Below are positions 2,424 through 27,623 of a stretch of DNA of 27,623 bases, piece after piece (position 1 is the first letter of the stretch; each line of letters opens with the position of its first letter). The notes under the pieces are model-generated. The model was not told the DNA's origin and did not search any database. It saw nothing but the letters and a program-made list of their open reading frames with translations. The stretch lies in assembly GCA_000438415.1 (NCBI GenBank), contig FR902236.1, forward strand, positions 4,378 through 32,000. The letters are read 5' to 3'. The position numbers were made by a program, and so were the translations under genes. This DNA comes from Clostridium sp. CAG:628. GTDB lineage: Bacteria > Bacillota_I > Bacilli_A > RF39 > UBA660.

Positions 2424-3110
2424 ATGAAAAAGAAAGTATGTTATGTATTATGTTCATTAATTTGTCTATTAGTAGGAGGTATATCTAGTTATTTTATATT
2501 TAATAGTAGTAAAAACACATTAAAAGAGTTACCACTTCCAGAAGTTACTGGTGGAGAAAGAGGGACTCTCGGAATAGACAAAAACATTAATGAGGAAACA
2601 TTAGACGAATACTTAGGTAGAGAAGATGTGGTATATAGAGACATGAGAATGCTTAAAGACCCAGGAAATTATGAAGCAATTGGAGGAGACTCATATATTT
2701 CAGGTTTTGTTAAAGGTTTTGAAGTAGTACCTTATCCATATTTAACTGAAGTAAAGGGTTTACCTGAAATAGTAGGAGACACTTATACTGGGAAAACATT
2801 ATTTAAAGAAGTAGATGGAAAGTATGTTGCTAACTATGAAGAGTCAATGGAATACTTAGAATATTATTTTCCAAAAGATAAAGTAATCTTCTTAATGTGT
2901 GGAGGAGGCGGTTATGCTGGCATGACTAAAAATCTTCTAGTAAGTTTAGGTTGGGATGAAAACAAAATTTATGATGTAGGTGGTTACTGGTTCTATAATG
3001 GTAAAAATAATGTACAAGTTAAAACTACTAAAGATGGTAAGACTACATATGACTTTTGGAAAGTTACTTATCATGATATAGATTTTAAATCATTAACTGA
3101 GGTAAAATAA
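2424..3110 (+). CDS. Membrane-anchored, extracytoplasmic rhodanese-like domain protein
   Basis: Strong SD (AAGGAGG). There is one N-terminal TM helix. The C-terminal part has a rhodanese-like layout (VVYRDMR..., then KDKVIFLMCGGGGYAGMTKNLLVSLGW...VGGYW) with a Cys at the active-site-loop position. Confidence 0.5.
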   Translation: MKKKVCYVLCSLICLLVGGISSYFIFNSSKNTLKELPLPEVTGGERGTLGIDKNINEETLDEYLGREDVVYRDMRMLKDPGNYEAIGGDSYISGFVKGFEVVPYPYLTEVKGLPEIVGDTYTGKTLFKEVDGKYVANYEESMEYLEYYFPKDKVIFLMCGGGGYAGMTKNLLVSLGWDENKIYDVGGYWFYNGKNNVQVKTTKDGKTTYDFWKVTYHDIDFKSLTEVK

Positions 3111-3571
3111 TGAAAAAGATAGTAGTAATAGTGTTAAGCGTATTCTTATTAACAGGTTGCTTTAGTAATAAGACTAATCAAGAAGATGGTACAAAACGAA
3201 TATATTTAACTAGTAGTTATTATAATAAAGGTGAGTTTATAAAAGTAGACGATTTAACTACTTTAGAAAGTGATACTTATATATTATTTACTTACAACAA
3301 CTTTTGTAATTTAGCAGTTTCATGCGATAAAATTTTTGAAAGTTTTATGAAAAAATATAGTATTGATTTTGTTTCAATTCCATTTGATAAATTTAAAGGT
3401 ACTTATTTATATGAAACAGTAAAGTATGCACCTTCTGTAATTATTATAAAAGATAAAGAAGTAGTTAGTTATTTAGATGCTAATTCGGATGAAGATTTAG
3501 ATAAGTATCAAGATGAGGAAGCTTTTGAAAGCTATCTTAATAAGTATATTTACTTTAATGATAAAGATTAA
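3110..3571 (+). CDS. Lipoprotein, possibly thioredoxin-fold-like with a CX5C pair
   Basis: The ATG overlaps the upstream stop (ATAATG), indicating translational coupling. The signal peptide has a lipobox (LLTGC). The stretch ILFTYNNFCNLAVSCDK...APSVIIIKDKEVV resembles a thioredoxin-like beta-alpha-beta arrangement but has no CxxC. Confidence 0.45.
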   Translation: MKKIVVIVLSVFLLTGCFSNKTNQEDGTKRIYLTSSYYNKGEFIKVDDLTTLESDTYILFTYNNFCNLAVSCDKIFESFMKKYSIDFVSIPFDKFKGTYLYETVKYAPSVIIIKDKEVVSYLDANSDEDLDKYQDEEAFESYLNKYIYFNDKD

Positions 3572-4153: not shown

Positions 4154-4195
4154 AAAAATATAACAAAATTGTATATCTTTCTTGTTATATTTTTT
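4153..4195. terminator. Bidirectional intrinsic terminator between the convergent HD-domain and KilA-N genes
   Basis: The arms aaaaaatataacaa and ttgttatatttttt form a ~13-bp stem with a 15-nt loop, with A-runs and T-runs on either side. The stem overlaps both stop codons. Confidence 0.6.
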
Positions 4196-5060
4196 ATTTA
4201 TTTTCAATTTTCATAAATTCAGTTGTTTTAAGTTTGGTAAGATTTTCGTCATTTTCTAATATTTTCAATTGGTCTATGGCTATTTTATTTAGTTTTTCTA
4301 ACCTAGCGGATTGCGTAATTTTATCATTAATCATTGTAGCATTTATGGTTTCTAAATTACATAAAACTAAAAGTTGTCTGATATCAGCGTAGTCTCTTTG
4401 GTTTCCTTTTAATCCTTGATTTTTATCTTTCCATTCTTTTGCTGTCATACCAAATAAGGCAACATTTAGTAAATCTGCTTCAGTAGAATATGCGTGTTTT
4501 TTCTGAATATCTGTAATTAAATTAGGAACTATTGAGTTTTTTATTGCATCGGTATGTATTTTATAATTTGCTTTAGATAATACTCTACTTGCATTCCAGT
4601 CAATTTTTTCTTGATATGCTTCATTTCTTTTTAATCTTTCAAATTCTTTGATTAAGTATAACTTGAATTCTGGACTTAACCAACTTGCAAATTCTAATGC
4701 AATGTCAGAATGAGCAAATGTACCACCATTATTTCCAGATTTTGATATAATACCAATTGCATTGGTTTCTTTAATCCATTTTTGTGGTGAAATTTTAAAT
4801 TTATTACTACCTGCTTCATTTTTAAACGTGTCGAATTCGACACCTTTGAAATTTTCATTATTTAGTTTTTCCCATAACCCTAGAAATGAAATAACATCTT
4901 TATTTCTCATCCAGTTTTGTATTGGATATCTTGGTTCATCTTCATCAGCATACCTTGCTAAATCGGTTAATGATATATATTCTTCCGTGCCAATTCTAAT
5001 TACACTTACCTTGTTGTTATTAACGTTCAGTTCGCTTTTAATTAAATTATTTTTCATCAA
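4194..5060 (-). CDS. KilA-N domain-containing protein
   Basis: ORF track. The N-terminal region ISLTDLARYADEDEPRYPIQNWMRNKDVISFLGLWE...GGTFAHSDIALEFASWLSPEFKLYLIKEFERLK is the KilA-N DNA-binding domain signature, and the C-terminal half is helical. The start is TTG or ATG, with AAAGGAGG upstream. Confidence 0.8.
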   Translation of the reverse strand: MMKNNLIKSELNVNNNKVSVIRIGTEEYISLTDLARYADEDEPRYPIQNWMRNKDVISFLGLWEKLNNENFKGVEFDTFKNEAGSNKFKISPQKWIKETNAIGIISKSGNNGGTFAHSDIALEFASWLSPEFKLYLIKEFERLKRNEAYQEKIDWNASRVLSKANYKIHTDAIKNSIVPNLITDIQKKHAYSTEADLLNVALFGMTAKEWKDKNQGLKGNQRDYADIRQLLVLCNLETINATMINDKITQSARLEKLNKIAIDQLKILENDENLTKLKTTEFMKIENK

Positions 5061-7620: not shown

Positions 7621-9087
7621 TTACCCCTTTCTAAAAATATTCTTTTTAGTTACATAACTAGGTCTTTTATTTAATGATTTAATATCTTTTCTTAAAATAG
7701 CATTACCTTGTTGACTAAAAATGAATGGAAAAATTGGAATAGTGTAGGGTTTACCAAATATTTTAATGCTAGATAAATTTATAATGAGAAGAAGTATCCC
7801 CATGATAAAACCAATTACTCCAAATGTTGCAGAAAAAAACATAAGAATATATCTCCAAAATCTAATACTTCCTTGCATATCATAGTAAATAAATATTAAA
7901 CTACTTATTGAACTAACTGCGACTACAATTACCATAATGGGAGAAATTAACCCTGCATTTACTGCTGCATCTCCCAAAACTAAAGCACCTAAAATACTTA
8001 AGGAAGTACCTCGGTTATTTGGCGTTCTTGCGTCTCCTTCATATAATAGTTCAAATGTAAATAAAAGAATAAATGCTTCAATAATAACAGGAAATGGGAC
8101 ATTACTTCTTTGCATAGAAAAGTTTATTAATAAGTTTACTGGAAGAATTTCAGGGTCGTATGATGTTAATGCAATAAAGAAAGCGGGAGTAACAATAGCC
8201 AAAATAAATGCAAGAAGTCTAATAACTCTCATGAATGTTGAAAAGAAAGGTTTATGGTAATAGTCTTCACTATTTTGAAAGAAATCAATAAAGAATGTAG
8301 GACACACTATTACACTTGGAGAGTTTTCCATTGTAACAATAACTCTTCCTTCAAGTAAATATCTTGACGCGTCATCCGGTTTTTCAGTATACAATAAAGT
8401 TGGAAATAACGTTTTATTAGAATTATCTATATAACTTTTTAAATAGTTAACATCCATTACACCATCTACATTAATAATCTTTAATTTTGAATAAACTTCA
8501 TTAATTAACTCATCTTCACAAATATTGTCCATGTATAAAAGTCCTACTTTACTTTTACCTTGAACACCTAGAGTAAGTTCTTTTATTAGTAAGTGTTCAC
8601 TTTTAACTCTTTTCCTAATAAGGCCTAGATTCTTTTGATAGTTTTCAGTAAATGAATCTTTAGGTCCACGAATAACTGGTTCGCTTGTTGGTTCAGTTAC
8701 ACCTCTATCTAATTCGGCTCTTGTTTCGTATGCAATACAGGTATTTTTGTAAATTACTAAAGTAAATCCACTAAAAAGTAGCTCATAAAGTTTTTTTTCA
8801 TCATTAACACTTTTAAAGTTGATGCTCGGTATATGCTCGTTTATGTCTTTTTTTAAGTTTTCAAGCACCTTATTACCAATAATACTTTTGTTACTAAAAT
8901 ATTTTAAAATAAAATCATTTATTCTGTCACCACTACTTACACTTTCATTTGATACCACGTATACATGCTTAAAAAACCCAATGTTAATTTTTTTGATTAT
9001 CAAGTCAGGCATGTTTTCTTTTAATTTATACAAGTTTTTAATTATATCCAATGTATTCATATTTCTATTATTGTCAAACTTTACCAA
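7621..9087 (-). CDS. Spore germination protein, GerAA/GerKA-type subunit
   Basis: ORF track. The soluble N-terminal domain is followed by a C-terminal 4-5 TM region with conserved stretches (EPVIRGPKDSFTE, LLEGRV, PTLLYTEKPD). The track start at 9087 is TTG, and the in-frame ATG at 9060 (MNTLDII...) is an alternative. Neither has a clear SD. Confidence 0.85.
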   Translation of the reverse strand: MVKFDNNRNMNTLDIIKNLYKLKENMPDLIIKKINIGFFKHVYVVSNESVSSGDRINDFILKYFSNKSIIGNKVLENLKKDINEHIPSINFKSVNDEKKLYELLFSGFTLVIYKNTCIAYETRAELDRGVTEPTSEPVIRGPKDSFTENYQKNLGLIRKRVKSEHLLIKELTLGVQGKSKVGLLYMDNICEDELINEVYSKLKIINVDGVMDVNYLKSYIDNSNKTLFPTLLYTEKPDDASRYLLEGRVIVTMENSPSVIVCPTFFIDFFQNSEDYYHKPFFSTFMRVIRLLAFILAIVTPAFFIALTSYDPEILPVNLLINFSMQRSNVPFPVIIEAFILLFTFELLYEGDARTPNNRGTSLSILGALVLGDAAVNAGLISPIMVIVVAVSSISSLIFIYYDMQGSIRFWRYILMFFSATFGVIGFIMGILLLIINLSSIKIFGKPYTIPIFPFIFSQQGNAILRKDIKSLNKRPSYVTKKNIFRKG

Positions 9088-22635: not shown

Positions 22636-22734
22636 TAGACACATAAGAAAAAAAGTAGTATACTAATAATGTAAGGAGTTGATAGTATGAAGTATGATTT
22701 ACTAAATATTGTTAATTCTTTTGTTTGTTTTTTT

Positions 22735-22759
22735 AAAGACGTTTTATGCGTCTTTTTTT
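22735..22759 (+). terminator. addBA intrinsic terminator
   Basis: aaagacg-ttttatg-cgtcttt hairpin followed by TTTT. It lies inside the 5' extension of track ORF 22687-23187, which argues for the later start of that gene. Confidence 0.6.
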
Positions 22760-22785
22760 CGTACTTGGAAGGGAAGTGTAATGGT

Positions 22786-23187
22786 ATGAAAGCAATAACA
22801 AGAGAAATGGTAAAAATGTATAAGATTAATAAGTTGGGCTTTGATTTTGCAGGATACACTTACAACAATAGTAGAGAACTTAGTTTTCATCATTTAGTAA
22901 TAGCAAATAGGGATGGAGGGTTAGTGACAATAGATAATGGTGCTATATTAAAACAGAAAACTAGTCATGATTACATACATGTAATTGAAATGTATGACCC
23001 AGAAATATTTTATCTAATAACAAGTGAAATGATAGATGAAAACATTAAAGGATATTTAGATATTAAAAATTTAAGAAAAATTAGAGAATTATTAGAATAT
23101 TTTGAAAGAGAGTATTGTAGTACTAGAACTAATAACGGAAAACTTTTAATAAAAAGGGAATATTTAACTGATAGAATAAAACTTTAA
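22786..23187 (+). CDS. Small HNH-nuclease-like protein (133 aa)
   Basis: I chose the ATG at 22786 because GGAAGGGAAG lies upstream and it is downstream of the addA terminator. The stretch LSFHHLVIANRDGGLVTIDNGAILKQKTSHDYIH fits the HH...N...H spacing of the HNH beta-beta-alpha-metal fold. The call rests on the motif only. Confidence 0.4.
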   Translation: MKAITREMVKMYKINKLGFDFAGYTYNNSRELSFHHLVIANRDGGLVTIDNGAILKQKTSHDYIHVIEMYDPEIFYLITSEMIDENIKGYLDIKNLRKIRELLEYFEREYCSTRTNNGKLLIKREYLTDRIKL

Positions 23188-23236: not shown

Positions 23237-23269
23237 TGTAAAATCTTGTGTAAAATTATATTGTAAATA
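23237..23269 (+). repeat. Three direct repeats, TGTAAAAT / TGTAAAAT / TGTAAATA, at 12-13-nt spacing upstream of the ABC exporter gene
   Basis: The copies are at 23237-23244, 23249-23256 and 23262-23269, 60-95 nt upstream of the ATG at 23331. No good -35 hexamer lies nearby. Confidence 0.35.
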
Positions 23270-23330
23270 AAAATAAAAAAAGTAATTTGTTTTTTTTTTA
23301 CGTATAAGTATGTAGGAGGGCAAAAAGAGT

Positions 23331-25358
23331 ATGACAAAAAAAGTAGTAGTTTTACAAGAAGACAAAAATGATTGTGCTGCAGCATGTGTATCATCATTAA
23401 TAAAATACTATAATGGTTCTTTAGATATGGAGACAATTAGAAACATTATTAATACTACTAAACATGGAACTAATGCTTATGATTTAATTAATGGGTGTAA
23501 AGAAATTGGCTTTGATGGTTTTGGAAAAAAATTATCATTTGAAGAATTGGTTTCGTATTATAAATTTCCTTTAATTGCGCATATTAAGAAGGATAATTAT
23601 TACCATTTTGTTGTTATTTATGATATTAATAAATCTAAAGAAAAAATAACTGTAATGGATCCATCTATAGGTTTAAGAAAAATATCATTTAAAGAATTTG
23701 TTATTAGTTATCAAGGTGTAATAATAAGTTTAGTAAAAGTAAAAGAATTACCAAAAGAATTAGAAACAAATCATTTATTCAATGTTATGATATCTAGCAT
23801 ATTTAAAAATAAAAAGATTTTAATAATTTTGATGATACTTAGTCTTATTTTATTTATATTAAGTTTAACTTCTTCTTTGTTTTATAAAATAATCTTAGAT
23901 GATATGTCTTCCGTAAATAAATACTATCTATCATTTGCAATAATATTACTTATTAAGTTAATATTTGATTACCTAAGAAGTTACTTTGTAATAAAACTAA
24001 ACAAAGAAATAGAGTTAAATATGAATAAAGAAATTACTAAAAGACTTTTGTGCCTTCCATATACATACTACAAGAATAAAACCACGGGAGAAATTACTTC
24101 TAGAATTAATGATTTAGATTTACTAAAAGATTTAATACTCGAAATTCTTTCAAACATTCTTGTGAATATTTTGTTATTATTAGGTAGTTATATTATTATA
24201 TTTTATCTTAATAAAACTCTTGCATTATTTATTTTAATACCACTACTAATATATTTTATAATAACTATATTAGTAAATAATCTATATACATCTAAAATAA
24301 GATACTTGCAAGAACTAAAAGGAATTTATAATAATAAACTTATTGAAACTATAAATGGAATAGAAACTATTAATAACTTAAACATAAAAGATAATCAAGT
24401 AAAAACACTCAACACTTATTTTGAAAAAACAATTAATAGTACAAATAAGTTTAATTTAATTAATACAACTTTAAATATAATTAGTGAATACTTGATAAAT
24501 ATTAGTAGTATATTCGTTCTTTTGTTAGGAATATCACTTGTCAAAAATAATTATATAACAATTGGAGAATTATTTCTAATATATATACTTTTTGGATATT
24601 TTATGAATATAGTTAAAACATTTTTAGAAAAAGTACCTAGTTTAAATTATGCTTACAAGAATATAAACAAAATTAATAGTATTTTAAAATATACAAATGA
24701 AAAAAAGAGTAATGAAAAAACTTCTGGTAAAATTATTTTAAAAGAAGTTCAATATAAAAGAGGTGAATATTTATTTAAAAATTTTAATTACTCAATTGAT
24801 GAAAAAGATAAAATATTATTAAAGGGAACAAGTGGAAGTGGAAAAAGTACATTGTTAAAAATGCTACTTAAGAATATTACAAATTATGAAGGAAATATTT
24901 ATATAGGAGAATCTAATCTTTTAAATATTGATAAATCTATAATAGATAATAGTTTTACTTATGTTGGACAAAATGAATTTATATTTAGTGGTACCATAAA
25001 AGATAATATTATTTTGTCAAGAAATATAACTGATGAAGCATATAATAGTATTTTAAATATTACTAGAGTTAATGAAATTATTAATAAGAAAGAGTTAAAT
25101 GATGCTTCATATATAGAAGAAAATGGTTTTAATTTAAGTGGTGGTGAAAAACAAAGAATAATTCTAGCAAGAGGTTTATTAAAAAATAGTAATTATATTT
25201 TAATAGATGAAGCACTTAGTGAAGTAGATTTAGTTTTAGAAAAAGATATAATTAAAGATATATTAAAATATTTTAAAGATAAAACTATAGTGTATGTTTC
25301 ACATAAAGAAGGATTAGATGAATTATTTAATAAAAAATTAATAATAGGAAAGGAGTAA
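23331..25358 (+). CDS. Peptidase C39 domain-containing bacteriocin ABC exporter (LagD/ComA/SunT type)
   Basis: The N-terminal C39 domain has the catalytic Cys context (QEDKNDCAAACVSSLIKYY) and His (HFVVIYDI). Six TM helices follow. The NBD has Walker A (GTSGSGKST), the signature (LSGGEKQR) and Walker B (ILIDEALS). Confidence 0.9.
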   Translation: MTKKVVVLQEDKNDCAAACVSSLIKYYNGSLDMETIRNIINTTKHGTNAYDLINGCKEIGFDGFGKKLSFEELVSYYKFPLIAHIKKDNYYHFVVIYDINKSKEKITVMDPSIGLRKISFKEFVISYQGVIISLVKVKELPKELETNHLFNVMISSIFKNKKILIILMILSLILFILSLTSSLFYKIILDDMSSVNKYYLSFAIILLIKLIFDYLRSYFVIKLNKEIELNMNKEITKRLLCLPYTYYKNKTTGEITSRINDLDLLKDLILEILSNILVNILLLLGSYIIIFYLNKTLALFILIPLLIYFIITILVNNLYTSKIRYLQELKGIYNNKLIETINGIETINNLNIKDNQVKTLNTYFEKTINSTNKFNLINTTLNIISEYLINISSIFVLLLGISLVKNNYITIGELFLIYILFGYFMNIVKTFLEKVPSLNYAYKNINKINSILKYTNEKKSNEKTSGKIILKEVQYKRGEYLFKNFNYSIDEKDKILLKGTSGSGKSTLLKMLLKNITNYEGNIYIGESNLLNIDKSIIDNSFTYVGQNEFIFSGTIKDNIILSRNITDEAYNSILNITRVNEIINKKELNDASYIEENGFNLSGGEKQRIILARGLLKNSNYILIDEALSEVDLVLEKDIIKDILKYFKDKTIVYVSHKEGLDELFNKKLIIGKE

Positions 25359-25362
25359 TTGT

Positions 25363-25488
25363 ATGACAAAAAATGAATTGTTAAAAATTGAAGGAGGAGT
25401 ATCTTGGGGATTATGGGGAATAGCTGGTACTATAATATCATTTATACTAGGTTTATATGATGGTGTAGTAAATTCAAGATGTAAATAA
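25363..25488 (+). CDS. Double-glycine-leader bacteriocin precursor A (41 aa; predicted mature 29 aa)
   Basis: Not in the ORF track. AGGAG lies 7 nt before the ATG, 4 nt after the exporter stop. The precursor is MTKNELLKIEGG|VSWGLWGIAGTIISFILGLYDGVVNSRCK. The leader has Glu -8, Leu -7, Ile -4 and GG at -2/-1. Confidence 0.75.
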   Translation: MTKNELLKIEGGVSWGLWGIAGTIISFILGLYDGVVNSRCK

Positions 25489-25500
25489 GGAGGTGTAATA

Positions 25501-25656
25501 ATGACTAAAGTAGAATTAATTAATGTGAGTGGTGGAGCTAGTTTAACTGGAGTTGTAGTTAATGCATTTGCAAAAATTATTACAATGTTTTATAACTTTG
25601 GTTATAAGTTTGGTGCAAACCTTTATAGAGGCTACACAAACCATTATTGTAAATAA
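25501..25656 (+). CDS. Double-glycine-leader bacteriocin precursor B (51 aa; predicted mature 39 aa)
   Basis: Not in the ORF track. AAGGAGG lies 7 nt before the ATG, 12 nt after peptide A. The precursor is MTKVELINVSGG|ASLTGVVVNAFAKIITMFYNFGYKFGANLYRGYTNHYCK. The leader has Glu -8, Leu -7, Val -4 and GG. Confidence 0.75.
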   Translation: MTKVELINVSGGASLTGVVVNAFAKIITMFYNFGYKFGANLYRGYTNHYCK

Positions 25657-25662
25657 AAAGTT

Positions 25663-25684
25663 GAAGGGTTTTTTCCCTTCTTTT
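25663..25684 (+). terminator. Intrinsic terminator closing the exporter-peptide operon
   Basis: gaaggg-tttttt-cccttc hairpin followed by TTTT, 7 nt after the peptide B stop. Confidence 0.65.
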
Positions 25685-25698
25685 ATTATGTTTTTTTC

Positions 25699-25753: not shown

Positions 25754-26944
25754 ATGTATAGATTTACAAGTGAATTACCTAAAGAAGAATATGATAATTT
25801 CATTCTAAATTATAGTATGGCTCCACTTACACAAACCTATAACTGGGCTAATATCAAAAGTAATTGGCGTCACTTCCACTGTGGCTTATATAAAGATGAT
25901 ACTTTAGTAGGAGTATGTTTAATTTTAGTAAAAAAGATGATTAAAGGTCTTAATATGTTTTTTGTACCACGTGGCTACTTAATTGATTTTACTAATTATG
26001 AAGACTTAGAAGAAATGACCAAAAATATAAAAGAACTAGCAAAAAAGACACATGCATATGTGGTAAAAATTGATCCTAATTTTTGTAAAAGACAATATAG
26101 TTTTAAAGGGGATGAAATAAACACTAATTATGATAAAGATTATCAAGTAAAACATAATAATTTACTTAAACTAGGTTATAAATCTCTTGGTCCACAAAAA
26201 GAAATGGGAAAAAGCATGGAACCAAACTACAATATGTTAGCACCTATATGTGATAACTCTAATAAAGTGTTAACTTTAGAAGAGCTACTTAGTACTTACA
26301 AAAGTAAATTTAAGTATTATATAGGAAGTTTTCATGAAAAAAGAGGTATAACTTTTGAAATAACTAGTGATATAAGTAAAGTTGGAATATTAGTTTCATT
26401 ACTAAAAGAAACTGAAGAAAAACAAAATATTAGTTTAAGAAATGAAGAATACTTTGTAAATTTAATGAAGAATTATCCAACTGCTAGATTAGTATTTGGT
26501 ACAATAAATTTACCTAAATATTTAAAGTTTCTTGAAGAAAACAATGGTAAAAGTACTGAAATTGAAGAAGTAAAAGAATTATTAAAAACTCATGAAGAAA
26601 ACATGGTATTATCAGCATCAATTATGTTTTTACCTTCCAATAAAAATGGTATTAGAACAAGTGAATACTTATATGCAGGTAATAGTCTTTCGTTAACAAA
26701 AATAAGAGTATCGACTGGAGTAGTATTTGAAATAATAAAATATTCACTAGAAAATAATTGTCATTATTGTAATTTAGGTGGAATAGATGGTAACTTGAAT
26801 GACCACTTAACAAGTTTTAAGGAAAAATTTAATGGAGAAGTACTAGAATTTGCTGGAGAATATGATTTACCAATAAAATGGATATACTATCCAATAAAAG
26901 TAATGTATCCTATATTATTAAAAATATATAAAATTATAAGATAG
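25754..26944 (+). CDS. FemA/FemB/FemX (MurM) family peptidoglycan interpeptide-bridge aminoacyltransferase
   Basis: The typical N-terminus (F.Q...W...K...W) reads here as APLTQTYNWANIKSNWRHFHCGLYKDDTLVGVCLILVKK...FFVPRGYLIDF. A central coiled-coil insertion lies at ~240-290. The C-terminal GNAT-like half has YLYAGNS and CNLGGIDG. The ~396-aa size fits. Confidence 0.82.
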   Translation: MYRFTSELPKEEYDNFILNYSMAPLTQTYNWANIKSNWRHFHCGLYKDDTLVGVCLILVKKMIKGLNMFFVPRGYLIDFTNYEDLEEMTKNIKELAKKTHAYVVKIDPNFCKRQYSFKGDEINTNYDKDYQVKHNNLLKLGYKSLGPQKEMGKSMEPNYNMLAPICDNSNKVLTLEELLSTYKSKFKYYIGSFHEKRGITFEITSDISKVGILVSLLKETEEKQNISLRNEEYFVNLMKNYPTARLVFGTINLPKYLKFLEENNGKSTEIEEVKELLKTHEENMVLSASIMFLPSNKNGIRTSEYLYAGNSLSLTKIRVSTGVVFEIIKYSLENNCHYCNLGGIDGNLNDHLTSFKEKFNGEVLEFAGEYDLPIKWIYYPIKVMYPILLKIYKIIR

Positions 26945-26955
26945 TAGGTTTAGTT

Positions 26956-27623
26956 ATGAATAAAAAAGGTTTAGTTTTAGTGTTATTTATCATATTAATT
27001 GGTTTATTTAATGTAACAATAATATACTTAGAAAAAAATAAATTAGTTAAAGACTTTATAAATATAAAATATAGTAATGATATTAATGAAAATAAAGAAT
27101 ATATTGTTACTGTAGAATATAAAAGTAAAAATAATAAAGATGTAGTATGTAGTCTAGATAATATTAATTATAAAAATATAGATGAATGTACCTTTAATTT
27201 AAAAAAAGGAGAATATAATTTATATTTAAGAAAAAATGATAAAGTAATAAAAGAAAAATTCAAAGTAGAAGAAAAGTTTTTAGGTACTTTTAGTAGTACT
27301 ATTGATGTGCTTGATACATATTATTTAGCAGTTAATGGTAAAAAGAAATTTAATTTTACTTTTGATTATAAAGAAGATTTTGATAAAACTGTTTACTATG
27401 AAATAACAAATACCGATGTCCTTAAAATAGAAAATGACACTATGTATGGACTAAAAACTGGAACTAGTGAAGTGATAGCAACTTTAAAAGATGGAAATAC
27501 TAAAACGTATAATATAGTAGTAACTGACTTAATAACACCACCAACAATAAATAATGATAAATATTATCTTCCATGTAATTATTACTCTTTAGAAGAAAGT
27601 ATATTATTAGATAAAATATTAGA
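26956..27623 (+). CDS. Secreted or membrane-anchored protein with a bacterial Ig-like (Big_2-type) domain; the 3' end lies outside the window
   Basis: The frame is open from the ATG at 26956 to the window edge; the track omits it because there is no stop. It has an N-terminal signal or anchor (MNKKGLVLVLFIILIGLF). The stretch VLKIENDTMYGLKTGTSEVIATLKDGNTKTYNIVV matches the Big_2 pattern. The SD is weak. Confidence 0.55.
   Translation, partial: MNKKGLVLVLFIILIGLFNVTIIYLEKNKLVKDFINIKYSNDINENKEYIVTVEYKSKNNKDVVCSLDNINYKNIDECTFNLKKGEYNLYLRKNDKVIKEKFKVEEKFLGTFSSTIDVLDTYYLAVNGKKKFNFTFDYKEDFDKTVYYEITNTDVLKIENDTMYGLKTGTSEVIATLKDGNTKTYNIVVTDLITPPTINNDKYYLPCNYYSLEESILLDKIL

Follow-up and report, generated by a model that had tools for sequence, protein, structure and literature searches.

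A conserved exporter and peptide-pair cassette in uncultured gut Bacilli, a candidate for a cysteine-joined two-peptide bacteriocin

Background

What purpose might be served by two very short reading frames that lie directly behind an ABC exporter gene, each coding for a peptide with a lone cysteine close to its end? The question is raised by a 27,623-nt stretch of DNA (the window, by which we mean the whole stretch analysed), from a source genome of about 25% G+C; the producer, one of the Bacilli of the gut, forms spores and is uncultured. A sequence-only reading had proposed that the two frames encode an exported double-glycine (GG) peptide pair of the class IIb bacteriocin type, whose cysteines might join the two chains. 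Two-peptide bacteriocins are thought to act as non-covalent helix pairs. The best explanation, in our view, is an exported GG pair that acts as a class IIb-like bacteriocin with its chains joined through cysteine, and we put the probability of this reading at roughly one half.

Results and discussion

The cassette and its exporter

The genes are arranged on the + strand in the order exporter, A, B, followed by a terminator. Together with the upstream region, the features are:

23237..23269, + strand: three direct repeats, TGTAAAAT (23237-23244), TGTAAAAT (23249-23256) and TGTAAATA (23262-23269), spaced 12-13 nt
23301..23309, + strand: -10-like element CGTATAAGT, with TATAAG at 23303-23308, about 35 nt past the repeats, in a conserved column block of the upstream alignment
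23314-23319, + strand: Shine-Dalgarno (SD) sequence of the exporter gene, AGGAGG, read from the sequence
23331..25358, + strand: peptidase-containing ABC exporter, 675 aa, with C39 peptidase, six-helix ABC membrane domain and ATPase
25363..25488, + strand: ORF of the peptide A precursor (41 aa), which begins 4 nt past the exporter stop and is preceded by the SD AAAGGAG
25363-25398, + strand: peptide A leader, MTKNELLKIEGG, 12 aa, with a double-glycine end
25399-25485, + strand: mature peptide A, VSWGLWGIAGTIISFILGLYDGVVNSRCK, 29 aa, 3125.6 Da, GRAVY 0.88
25501..25656, + strand: ORF of the peptide B precursor (51 aa), which begins 12 nt past the A stop and is preceded by the SD AGGAGGTG
25501-25536, + strand: peptide B leader, MTKVELINVSGG, 12 aa, with a double-glycine end
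25537-25653, + strand: mature peptide B, ASLTGVVVNAFAKIITMFYNFGYKFGANLYRGYTNHYCK, 39 aa, 4444.1 Da, charge about +4
25663..25689, + strand: intrinsic terminator, hairpin GAAGGG-TTTTTT-CCCTTC (25663-25680) and then a T-run, ending the three-gene unit

The sequence-only reading had described these genes in some detail, and on the window sequence the coordinates and sequences of the exporter, A and B all hold, as do the strong SD before each small ORF and its short distance from the preceding stop, the Glu at -8, Leu at -7 and Ile or Val at -4 of both leaders, and the single Cys, penultimate and before Lys, of each mature peptide. ORF reading and a terminator scan place A and B on the same strand with the sole terminator 3' of B, and the view that exporter, A and B form one unit closed by a terminator is borne out by the scan, which scored the hairpin and T-run, and by the fold energy (-9.4 kcal/mol, z = -2.7). 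Three terminator-like sites were counted in the region, where 0.2 would be expected.

Above the Pfam cut-offs the exporter matches Peptidase_C39 (3e-29, residues 4-135), ABC_membrane (1e-32) and ABC_tran (4e-23), and its Gln9, Cys15, His92 and Asp109 are matched by the same amino acids in the peptidase domain of PCAT1. An N-terminal C39 domain with catalytic Cys, His and Asp and an oxyanion Gln, an ABC membrane domain and an ATPase, here with readable Walker A (GTSGSGKST), signature (LSGGE) and Walker B (ILIDE) motifs, are what one looks for in a PCAT, and judging by these residues the protein is a PCAT-type ABC transporter with a C39 peptidase predicted to be catalytically intact. Its best solved relatives, both aligned over the full length, are PCAT1 of Clostridium thermocellum (4RY2, E 4e-84), with which it has the peptidase Gln, Cys, His and Asp in common, and Streptococcus ComA (8HF4, E 2e-70). 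Compared with these two it is somewhat shorter, at 675 aa, and its cargo would be a pair of short peptides. It apparently works without an accessory protein, as PCAT1 presumably does. Its scores are under the NCBIfam cut-offs for TIGR01193 (peptide cleavage/export ABC transporter; 307 bits, cut-off 523.85), TIGR03796 (310 vs 853) and the Mycoplasma family NF045998 (283 vs 500), and nothing functional was found on Mbov_0121/MAG1140. Sequence comparison places it, as a divergent member, among the PCATs in the wider sense.

Conservation of the locus and of the two small genes

The alignments indicate that A and B each belong to a larger, uncharacterised peptide family, with 64 clusters for A and 135 representative clusters at E<=1e-3 for B; our literature search found no paper carrying the A/B family motifs in a peptide context. 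A search for the pair in related genomes had been proposed with the sequence-only reading, and the exporter-A-B order indeed turns up again across many lineages of low-GC, spore-forming gut Bacilli known from metagenomes. It is conserved in loci of the window type (L020, L027, L028), in L001/L025/L038/L039, in L023/L024, in L030, in L032-L036/L040 and in L052, and, with an extra gene for a protein of 140-147 aa, in L041-L044, L047 and L053. Across these loci the exporter diverges considerably, to 53% identity in L001 and much further in L041 and L053. The 140-147 aa protein sits between the exporter and A in the distant loci, and tblastn found no homolog of it in the window or in window-type loci. 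The exporter-first order, which had been called atypical, is the rule in this family rather than a peculiarity of the window locus. Loss of the small ORFs where the exporter is kept had been named as evidence that would count against the pair; the opposite was found, with A and B behind the exporter in all intact loci recovered.

A few loci deserve a separate remark. L019 and L049 are decayed and have lost B, the contig of L051 ends too near to show the partner peptide, and the Tex-exporter fusion of L023 looks like a chimeric or deleted contig, the normal exporter end being seen in L024. A 709-aa match, P0011, was rejected as a tandem-repeat translation artefact. In the plasmid collection the cassette was matched by neither protein nor DNA.

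One may also consider that the small ORFs are simply chance frames in the AT-rich spacer past the exporter gene, being short (41 and 51 codons) and reaching no curated model at cut-off. Nevertheless, both have strong SDs at the right distance, a terminator follows B only, and both are conserved at the protein level in many lineages as parts of large homologous families. In all comparisons dN/dS is below 1 (0.13-0.45 for A and 0.21-0.54 for B), which points to purifying selection, and since the pair is also kept behind homologous exporters in several lineages, the ORFs go beyond what chance would give. The comparative data refute this explanation, which we consider hardly conceivable; on these data A and B are true genes under selection, with what we read as minimal 12-residue double-glycine leaders.

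Resemblance to class IIb bacteriocins

Class IIb peptides have double-glycine leaders of 15-30 residues that are removed by a dedicated ABC transporter, a GxxxG (or AxxxA/SxxxS) helix-helix motif in both peptides, and an immunity gene within the same operon (PMC2850506). The window locus resembles members of this class such as lactococcin G/enterocin 1071 and plantaricin EF and JK (PMC2850506) in having adjacent peptide genes (kept in all intact relatives) in one operon, consensus GG leaders with a dedicated C39 exporter, a GxxxG motif in each peptide, predicted helices, and one hydrophobic and one cationic peptide. It differs from them (PMC2850506) in its 12-residue leaders, in the position of the exporter gene, in having no accessory protein, and in the operon's having no immunity gene, the stretch from the exporter start to the terminator holding no ORF beyond these three. 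The motifs are GLYDG in A (mature G18-G22) and GYKFG in B (mature G22-G26); both glycines are invariant in the A family alignment, and in that of B the first is invariant and the second is present in at least 90% of sequences. AlphaFold2 single-chain models give peptide A a helix at residues 15-37 (pLDDT 76) and peptide B one long helix at residues 14-46 (pLDDT 77), with each Cys outside the helix, in a loose tail just past it. A further difference from class IIb is that the C-terminal Cys, near-invariant in each family, co-varies with that of the partner. Lactococcin G and plantaricins EF and JK we take to be devoid of Cys.

HMM searches were another check proposed at the outset. With Pfam and NCBIfam models the window peptides did give class II bacteriocin matches, albeit all below cut-off, no model reaching it on either peptide. 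For TIGR03949 (lactobin A/cerein 7B; cut-off 21.5 bits) A scored 16.3 and B 19.3, for NF038034 (lactococcin G-beta/enterocin 1071B; cut-off 37 bits) 24.8 and 12.3, and for PF10439 Bacteriocin_IIc (gathering cut-off 27.1 bits) A scored 13.6 and B was unmatched. A weak match of A to XhlA (17.3 vs 34.7 bits) was set aside as reflecting no more than a hydrophobic helix. Unlike window A and B, distant A relatives do pass TIGR03949 (29.1 and 24.2 bits vs 21.5), although the match spans the leader and the glycine-rich start and not the conserved DG-x-x-(R/N)-P-x-x-C tail. NCBI and JGI label some A relatives class IIb bacteriocins (MDD4035894.1, MBQ6284746.1), and the B-family peptides of L001 and L041 have no NCBIfam match at E<=1. 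Support for the class IIb-like reading comes from the GG leaders, the intact C39 exporter, the GxxxG motif of each family, the sub-threshold model matches and the names of some relatives. On this analysis A and B very probably are a cleaved, exported GG peptide pair; that their function is antagonistic, i.e. that of a bacteriocin, is suggested by the sequences with less assurance, but still as the likelier role.

Immunity, neighbours and control

Domain and ORF searches confirmed the earlier observation that the window holds no HlyD-like accessory gene, no small TM immunity gene and no histidine kinase or response regulator gene. No immunity gene was found in or adjoining the operon in any window-type locus, and no small TM ORF near the cassette on either strand, nor was one seen in close relatives. 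An upstream 133-aa ORF (22786-23187) was rejected as an immunity or regulator gene, having no TM segment, no family and no conservation beside the cassette elsewhere. The downstream FemAB gene and a gene for an N-anchored Big_2/hydrolase-like protein were likewise rejected as parts of the system: they adjoin the cassette in close lineages only and are absent beside L041, L052 and L053. Sporulation and germination genes occur nearby, namely a GerA operon in the window, GerM/SpoIIIAH in L025 and L052, and a GerA gene in L053.

In the upstream alignment a threefold YGTAAAA is conserved ahead of the exporter in close lineages. The triple GTAAAA repeat occurs once, at this one position, in the window and in each of 15 fetched loci, and the remainder of these 471 kb is free of it on both strands; it is probably the cassette-specific operator of some regulator. 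The -10-like element is a putative promoter element. A generic sigma-70 scan left it uncalled and gave no site in the exporter's upstream spacer, its sites being no more numerous than in shuffled sequence; the upstream elements were judged by cross-lineage conservation in place of the promoter scan. Exporter, A and B make up a self-contained three-gene cassette that is probably regulated.

Paired cysteines

That both peptides end in Cys-Lys is correct for the window but does not hold as a conserved unit: A relatives end in C-G-K, C-N or a bare C, and B relatives in C plus 0-4 residues. What the alignments show to be conserved is a single Cys close to the C-terminus, the Cys-Lys dipeptide being local to the window. 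Such a C-terminal Cys, followed by 0-4 residues, is present in 115 of 118 short B-family members, a count from a search profile that included the Cys column and slightly favours Cys-bearing matches.

Both peptides carry the Cys in 11 of 13 A/B pairs, neither does in the other two, and none is discordant, the decayed loci L019 and L049 being omitted from the count: the sole two B peptides lacking a C-terminal Cys (P0039, P0058) adjoin the sole two intact Cys-less A peptides (P0186, P0196). Since the nearest relatives of each carry Cys, the two losses are independent. Fisher's exact test gives p = 0.018 for the first 11 pairs and, calculated by hand with the two later pairs added, 1/78, values that reflect two loss events. 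This correlated presence and absence agrees with the earlier suggestion that the two Cys belong together, and it supports an A-B disulfide or a shared Cys-dependent step; the pattern would be just as expected if the two Cys shared some other step, e.g. if they bridged a metal, formed a mixed disulfide with a receptor or received the same modification. A direct A-B Cys-Cys link, as far as the covariation suggests, falls just short of an even chance.

The gut is a largely reducing habitat, in which a disulfide may fail to form or may be lost again. No thiol-disulfide oxidoreductase linked to the cassette was found, the only candidate being a weak thioredoxin-like lipoprotein 20 kb away, and our literature search found no description of an inter-peptide disulfide in class II bacteriocins, class IIb included. 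The architecture proposed here, i.e. two different amphipathic or hydrophobic helices and one inter-chain disulfide, is that of disulfide-linked heterodimeric animal antimicrobial peptides such as frog distinctin and dimeric ant venom peptides, which are eukaryotic and unrelated in sequence and biogenesis and serve as an analogy only.

Proposed mechanism and alternatives

As PCAT and ComA biology would suggest, the C39 domain would bind the leaders, cut past Gly-Gly and export the hydrophobic A and the cationic B. Outside the cell the helices may pack via their single GxxxG motifs, as the invariant motifs and helix predictions suggest, and A and B, in the manner of class IIb two-peptide bacteriocins, would act jointly on a membrane, or a membrane protein, of the target. 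The tail Cys of A would be joined to the tail Cys of B, most simply by an intermolecular disulfide (a step for which covariation is the evidence), and with such a bond the chains would be held parallel in a covalent 1:1 heterodimer of about 7568 Da. The fullest version, in which A and B are widespread unmodified two-peptide bacteriocins that are disulfide-joined after export, have no immunity protein in the operon and are controlled by the triple-repeat operator, we advance tentatively, at somewhat less than even odds.

The GxxxG motifs, leaders and exporter would fit equally well with an ordinary, non-covalent class IIb-like pair in which GxxxG packing is all that joins the peptides and the Cys are free thiols that both peptides use for something else, for instance to bind a metal, to touch the target receptor or to make activity depend on redox state. 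The anaerobic habitat, the lack of a linked oxidoreductase and the silence of the literature on inter-peptide disulfides in class IIb bacteriocins would all favour such a pair. What speaks against it is the joint loss of Cys in two independent lineages with 0 of 13 pairs discordant, simplest if each Cys needs the other, as well as the position of both Cys in modelled flexible tails beyond the helices, where they could meet. On balance we regard it as rather unlikely.

Still less probable, in our estimate, is that these are exported GG peptides with no antibacterial role, signalling or directed at the producer itself, e.g. a cell-cell signal or a sporulation/germination membrane factor. Either role would account for the immunity gene's not being found, the predicted triple-repeat operator, being specific to the cassette, points to regulation of its own, genes for sporulation and germination often lie nearby, and PCATs export signalling peptides too. 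However, no histidine kinase, response regulator or Rgg-type receptor was found in the window or the fetched flanks. Peptide A, a TM-like helix of 29 aa with a GRAVY of 0.88, is unlike the short soluble pheromones that are known. Moreover, two conserved partners, each with GxxxG, are the class IIb signature (PMC2850506), and some members of the A family score above the cut-off for TIGR03949, a class IIb model.

Conclusions

The family is common in human-gut metagenomes, is absent from Pfam and is caught by NCBIfam at its fringe only, so that standard genome mining overlooks the greater part of it, and the B family altogether. With the immunity gene missing, one must ask how the producer is protected from its own peptides, and the probable dedicated operator prompts the question of what turns the cassette on. 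If the cysteine-joined bacteriocin reading is true, uncultured gut Bacilli would possess a covalent heterodimeric class II bacteriocin family, which touches on the class-wide question of how the partners meet at 1:1 stoichiometry. A disulfide-tied pair would be a natural locked dimer with a fixed helix orientation, making the helix-helix model of class IIb directly testable, and it would offer a simple scaffold for engineering narrow-spectrum antimicrobials.

Organization and conservation of the cassette

The layout proposed for this region in the sequence-only reading, an exporter gene followed by two small leader-peptide genes and a terminator, was borne out when the sequence was read again.

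Features of the cassette (window positions)
23237-23269, 5' of the exporter gene: three direct YGTAAAA repeats, 12-13 nt apart, common to the close lineages
23331-25358, + strand: exporter gene, a 675-aa ORF with Pfam Peptidase_C39, ABC_membrane and ABC_tran
25363-25488, + strand: peptide A gene, a 41-codon ORF 4 nt past the exporter ORF, with a strong Shine-Dalgarno
25501-25656, + strand: peptide B gene, a 51-codon ORF 12 nt past A, with a strong Shine-Dalgarno
25663-25689, + strand: terminator closing the unit, a GC-rich hairpin and T-run (-9.4 kcal/mol, z = -2.7)

Both leaders, MTKNELLKIEGG and MTKVELINVSGG, match the double-glycine consensus, and A and B share a frame in the window, with TAA and 12 nt between them. 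In the close lineages CGTATAAGT lies ~35 nt 3' of the repeats and is followed by the Shine-Dalgarno; L052, a relative's locus, retains two repeats. The window and 15 retrieved loci each hold a single triple repeat, at a constant position, and there is no other in the 471 kb scanned; it is probably the binding site of a putative regulator, and the window holds no HK/RR or Rgg-like gene.

The window derives from the chromosome of a spore-former (25% G+C) and includes the gerA operon, lexA, ileS, addBA and femAB. An ORF at 22687-23187 (+), listed as 166 aa, has its probable start at 22786, which gives 133 aa, the length called in the window-type locus L020; a terminator-like hairpin 3' of addA (22735-22755) falls inside its 5' extension. 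The product matches no family, and other loci do not conserve it next to the cassette. KilA-N domain proteins are often phage-derived, and one (4194-5060, -) stands by itself, with an HD-domain gene on one side and the gerA operon on the other. A pentapeptide-repeat protein (1189-1845, +) adjoins a tRNA-editing domain gene.

A and B are real genes. One genome scan turned up a single close relative, the MAG of an uncultured member of the Bacilli from the human gut, in which homologs of A and B can be recognised after an exporter 53% identical to that of the window. The exporter-A-B order also occurs in further lineages, gathered by protein searches, contig look-ups and one metagenome scan (L020/L027/L028, of window type; L025/L038/L039; L023/L024; L026; L030; L032-L036/L040; L052). 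In pairwise comparisons dN/dS lies at 0.13-0.45 for A and at 0.21-0.54 for B.

Both families extend far beyond what the locus would lead one to expect. A B profile searched against 1.84 billion representative proteins gave 135 clusters at E<=1e-3, mostly of 50-57 aa with a GG leader (consensus GG-xxISGTLINAxxKxxxTIYxxGRSxGSAIRRIxxxxxC), and an A profile gave 64 (GG-(G)IS...IGA...F..G(I/V)IDG(Y/I)(V/A)RPx(K/R)C). NCBI and JGI name a few A relatives "class IIb bacteriocin, lactobin A/cerein 7B family"; no source names B. Exporter-first order is kept in the distant loci L041-L044, L047 and L053, and in these, as in L049, an extra N-anchored protein of 140-147 aa lies between exporter and A (L041 7414-7857; L047 676-1098; L049 5571-5999; L053 4564-4998). 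It is absent from window-type loci; the L049 copy is weakly like the Mycoplasma MAG1140 family NF045999 (20.8 bits, cut-off 35), and a related system may exist in Mollicutes.

Some copies are irregular. In L019 (1-1000), B past its first 8 codons is replaced by a metallophosphoesterase fragment running into two tRNA-like stretches on the other strand, and the surviving A peptide has a newly acquired second Cys (..GICEGITNPIKCGK). L049 6130-7074 is a decayed cassette with A truncated after GIIDG and a 257-aa gene in place of the missing B. Three metagenomic gene calls (P0028, P0059, P0063) join A-like and B-like parts in single products of 99-102 aa with no stop between, with a Trp at the junction in P0059; they may reflect true fusion, a different genetic code that permits read-through, or errors of gene calling.

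The exporter and neighbouring genes

Peptidase_C39 covers exporter residues 4-135 (Pfam, 3e-29), and the best solved relatives are PCAT1 (4RY2, E 4e-84) and ComA (8HF4). Gln9, Cys15, His92 and Asp109 align to identical PCAT1 residues, and the ATPase motifs are intact. Since the protein does not reach the curated cut-offs of TIGR01193, TIGR03796 or the Mycoplasma model NF045998, its sequence marks it as a divergent peptidase-containing ABC transporter (PCAT). NF045998 (Mbov_0121 family), its third-best NCBIfam match, is the neighbour model of NF045999.

Neither the cassette nor its flanks encode an immunity protein, an HlyD-like accessory protein or a modification enzyme. In L041 an uncalled 59-aa hydrophobic ORF (8153-8332) overlaps the end of B and is a possible immunity candidate. 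Downstream in the window are a FemAB-family gene (25754-26944, 1e-57) and a gene for an N-anchored protein (26956-27623) running off the window end. Homologs of the latter protein in L001, L030 and L032 (441-455 aa) combine a Big_2/HL_N-beta domain with a C-terminus resembling Cys/His hydrolases, a weak Amidase_5 match. Close lineages always have both of these genes, or the hydrolase gene without its partner, immediately 3' of the cassette. The combination of a FemAB-like protein with an adjacent secreted wall hydrolase is reminiscent of two toxin-immunity pairs, lysostaphin/Lif and zoocin/Zif. Some 20 kb from the cassette, a 153-aa lipoprotein (3110-3571, +; signal ...LLTGC) has only weak matches, to thioredoxins (five PDB entries at E 0.13-1.4; Pfam Thioredoxin, E 0.11), with C-x6-C where thioredoxins have CxxC; it could conceivably be a thiol-disulfide protein acting outside the cytoplasm, which would bear on the proposed disulfide.

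C-terminal cysteines and predicted helices

Each mature window peptide has one Cys, penultimate before Lys. The Cys-Lys ending first remarked on is thus present in both, but it is local to the window, the family-wide unit being a single Cys followed by 0-4 residues. Of 118 B peptides no longer than 70 aa, 115 have such a C-terminal Cys and 100 have a single Cys in all; it is also present in almost every intact A peptide. The exceptions provide the decisive test. Just two B peptides lack it, P0039 (L045) and P0058 (L047), the latter with ..NLGPLE for the usual ..NLCPLE, and their partner A peptides, P0186 and P0196, likewise have none. These paired losses are independent, because each has nearest relatives with the Cys and neither is closely related to the other. 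Thirteen A/B pairs were readable (window, L001, L023, L030, L032, L041, L052, L053, L045, L047 and the run-together P0028, P0059 and P0063): both partners have Cys in 11, neither in 2, and only one in none (Fisher's exact p = 0.018 for the first 11 pairs; 1/78 by hand for all 13). The paired losses, with no discordant pair, support the earlier suggestion that the two Cys function together.

A single GxxxG is conserved in either family: GLYDG in window A, GYKFG in window B. In A neither Gly varies; in B this is true of the first, and at least 90% of sequences keep the second. All characterised class IIb (two-peptide) bacteriocins have GxxxG (PMC2850506). With the family alignments as input, AlphaFold2 models A with a single helix (residues 15-37, pLDDT 76) and mature B with a single long one (residues 14-46, pLDDT 77), the Cys of each being placed in a short non-helical tail. 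The Cys is 6 residues past the second Gly in A and 12 past it in B, and we infer that under parallel GxxxG packing the tails could plausibly meet.

Interpretation

The best explanation as a whole, with a probability of about 0.5, is that the C39 domain would cut both precursors after GG, that the transporter would export them, and that the peptides would then pack as a helix pair through GxxxG, linked by way of the Cys in their tails, a disulfide being the simplest form of such a link, and would act on a target membrane. Export and cleavage are very likely, and an antagonistic function is probable. A rather improbable rival reading is an exported pair that is not antibacterial; this would explain the missing immunity gene. 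That A and B are chance ORFs is scarcely conceivable.

A direct Cys-Cys link falls a little short of even odds. What chiefly counts against a disulfide is that the producer's habitat is reducing, that no thiol-disulfide oxidoreductase is linked to the cassette and that the covariation is carried by two loss events only. A non-covalent, class IIb-like pair, whose thiols would have another shared role, is unlikely, if less so than a pair that is not antibacterial.

By the published definition, class IIb systems have an immunity gene in the operon and leaders of 15-30 residues (PMC2850506). The cassette lacks the former and its leaders are shorter than the range quoted, so that we regard it as working like a class IIb system but do not file it in a named family. 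In the open literature that was searched we found no paper with the A/B family motifs in a peptide context, and no inter-peptide disulfide described in unmodified two-peptide bacteriocins. A GG-leader two-peptide bacteriocin with a PCAT is already known as a kind, but with its paired C-terminal Cys, minimal leader, operon without an immunity gene, exporter-first order and dedicated triple-repeat putative operator, this cassette appears to represent an undescribed variant.
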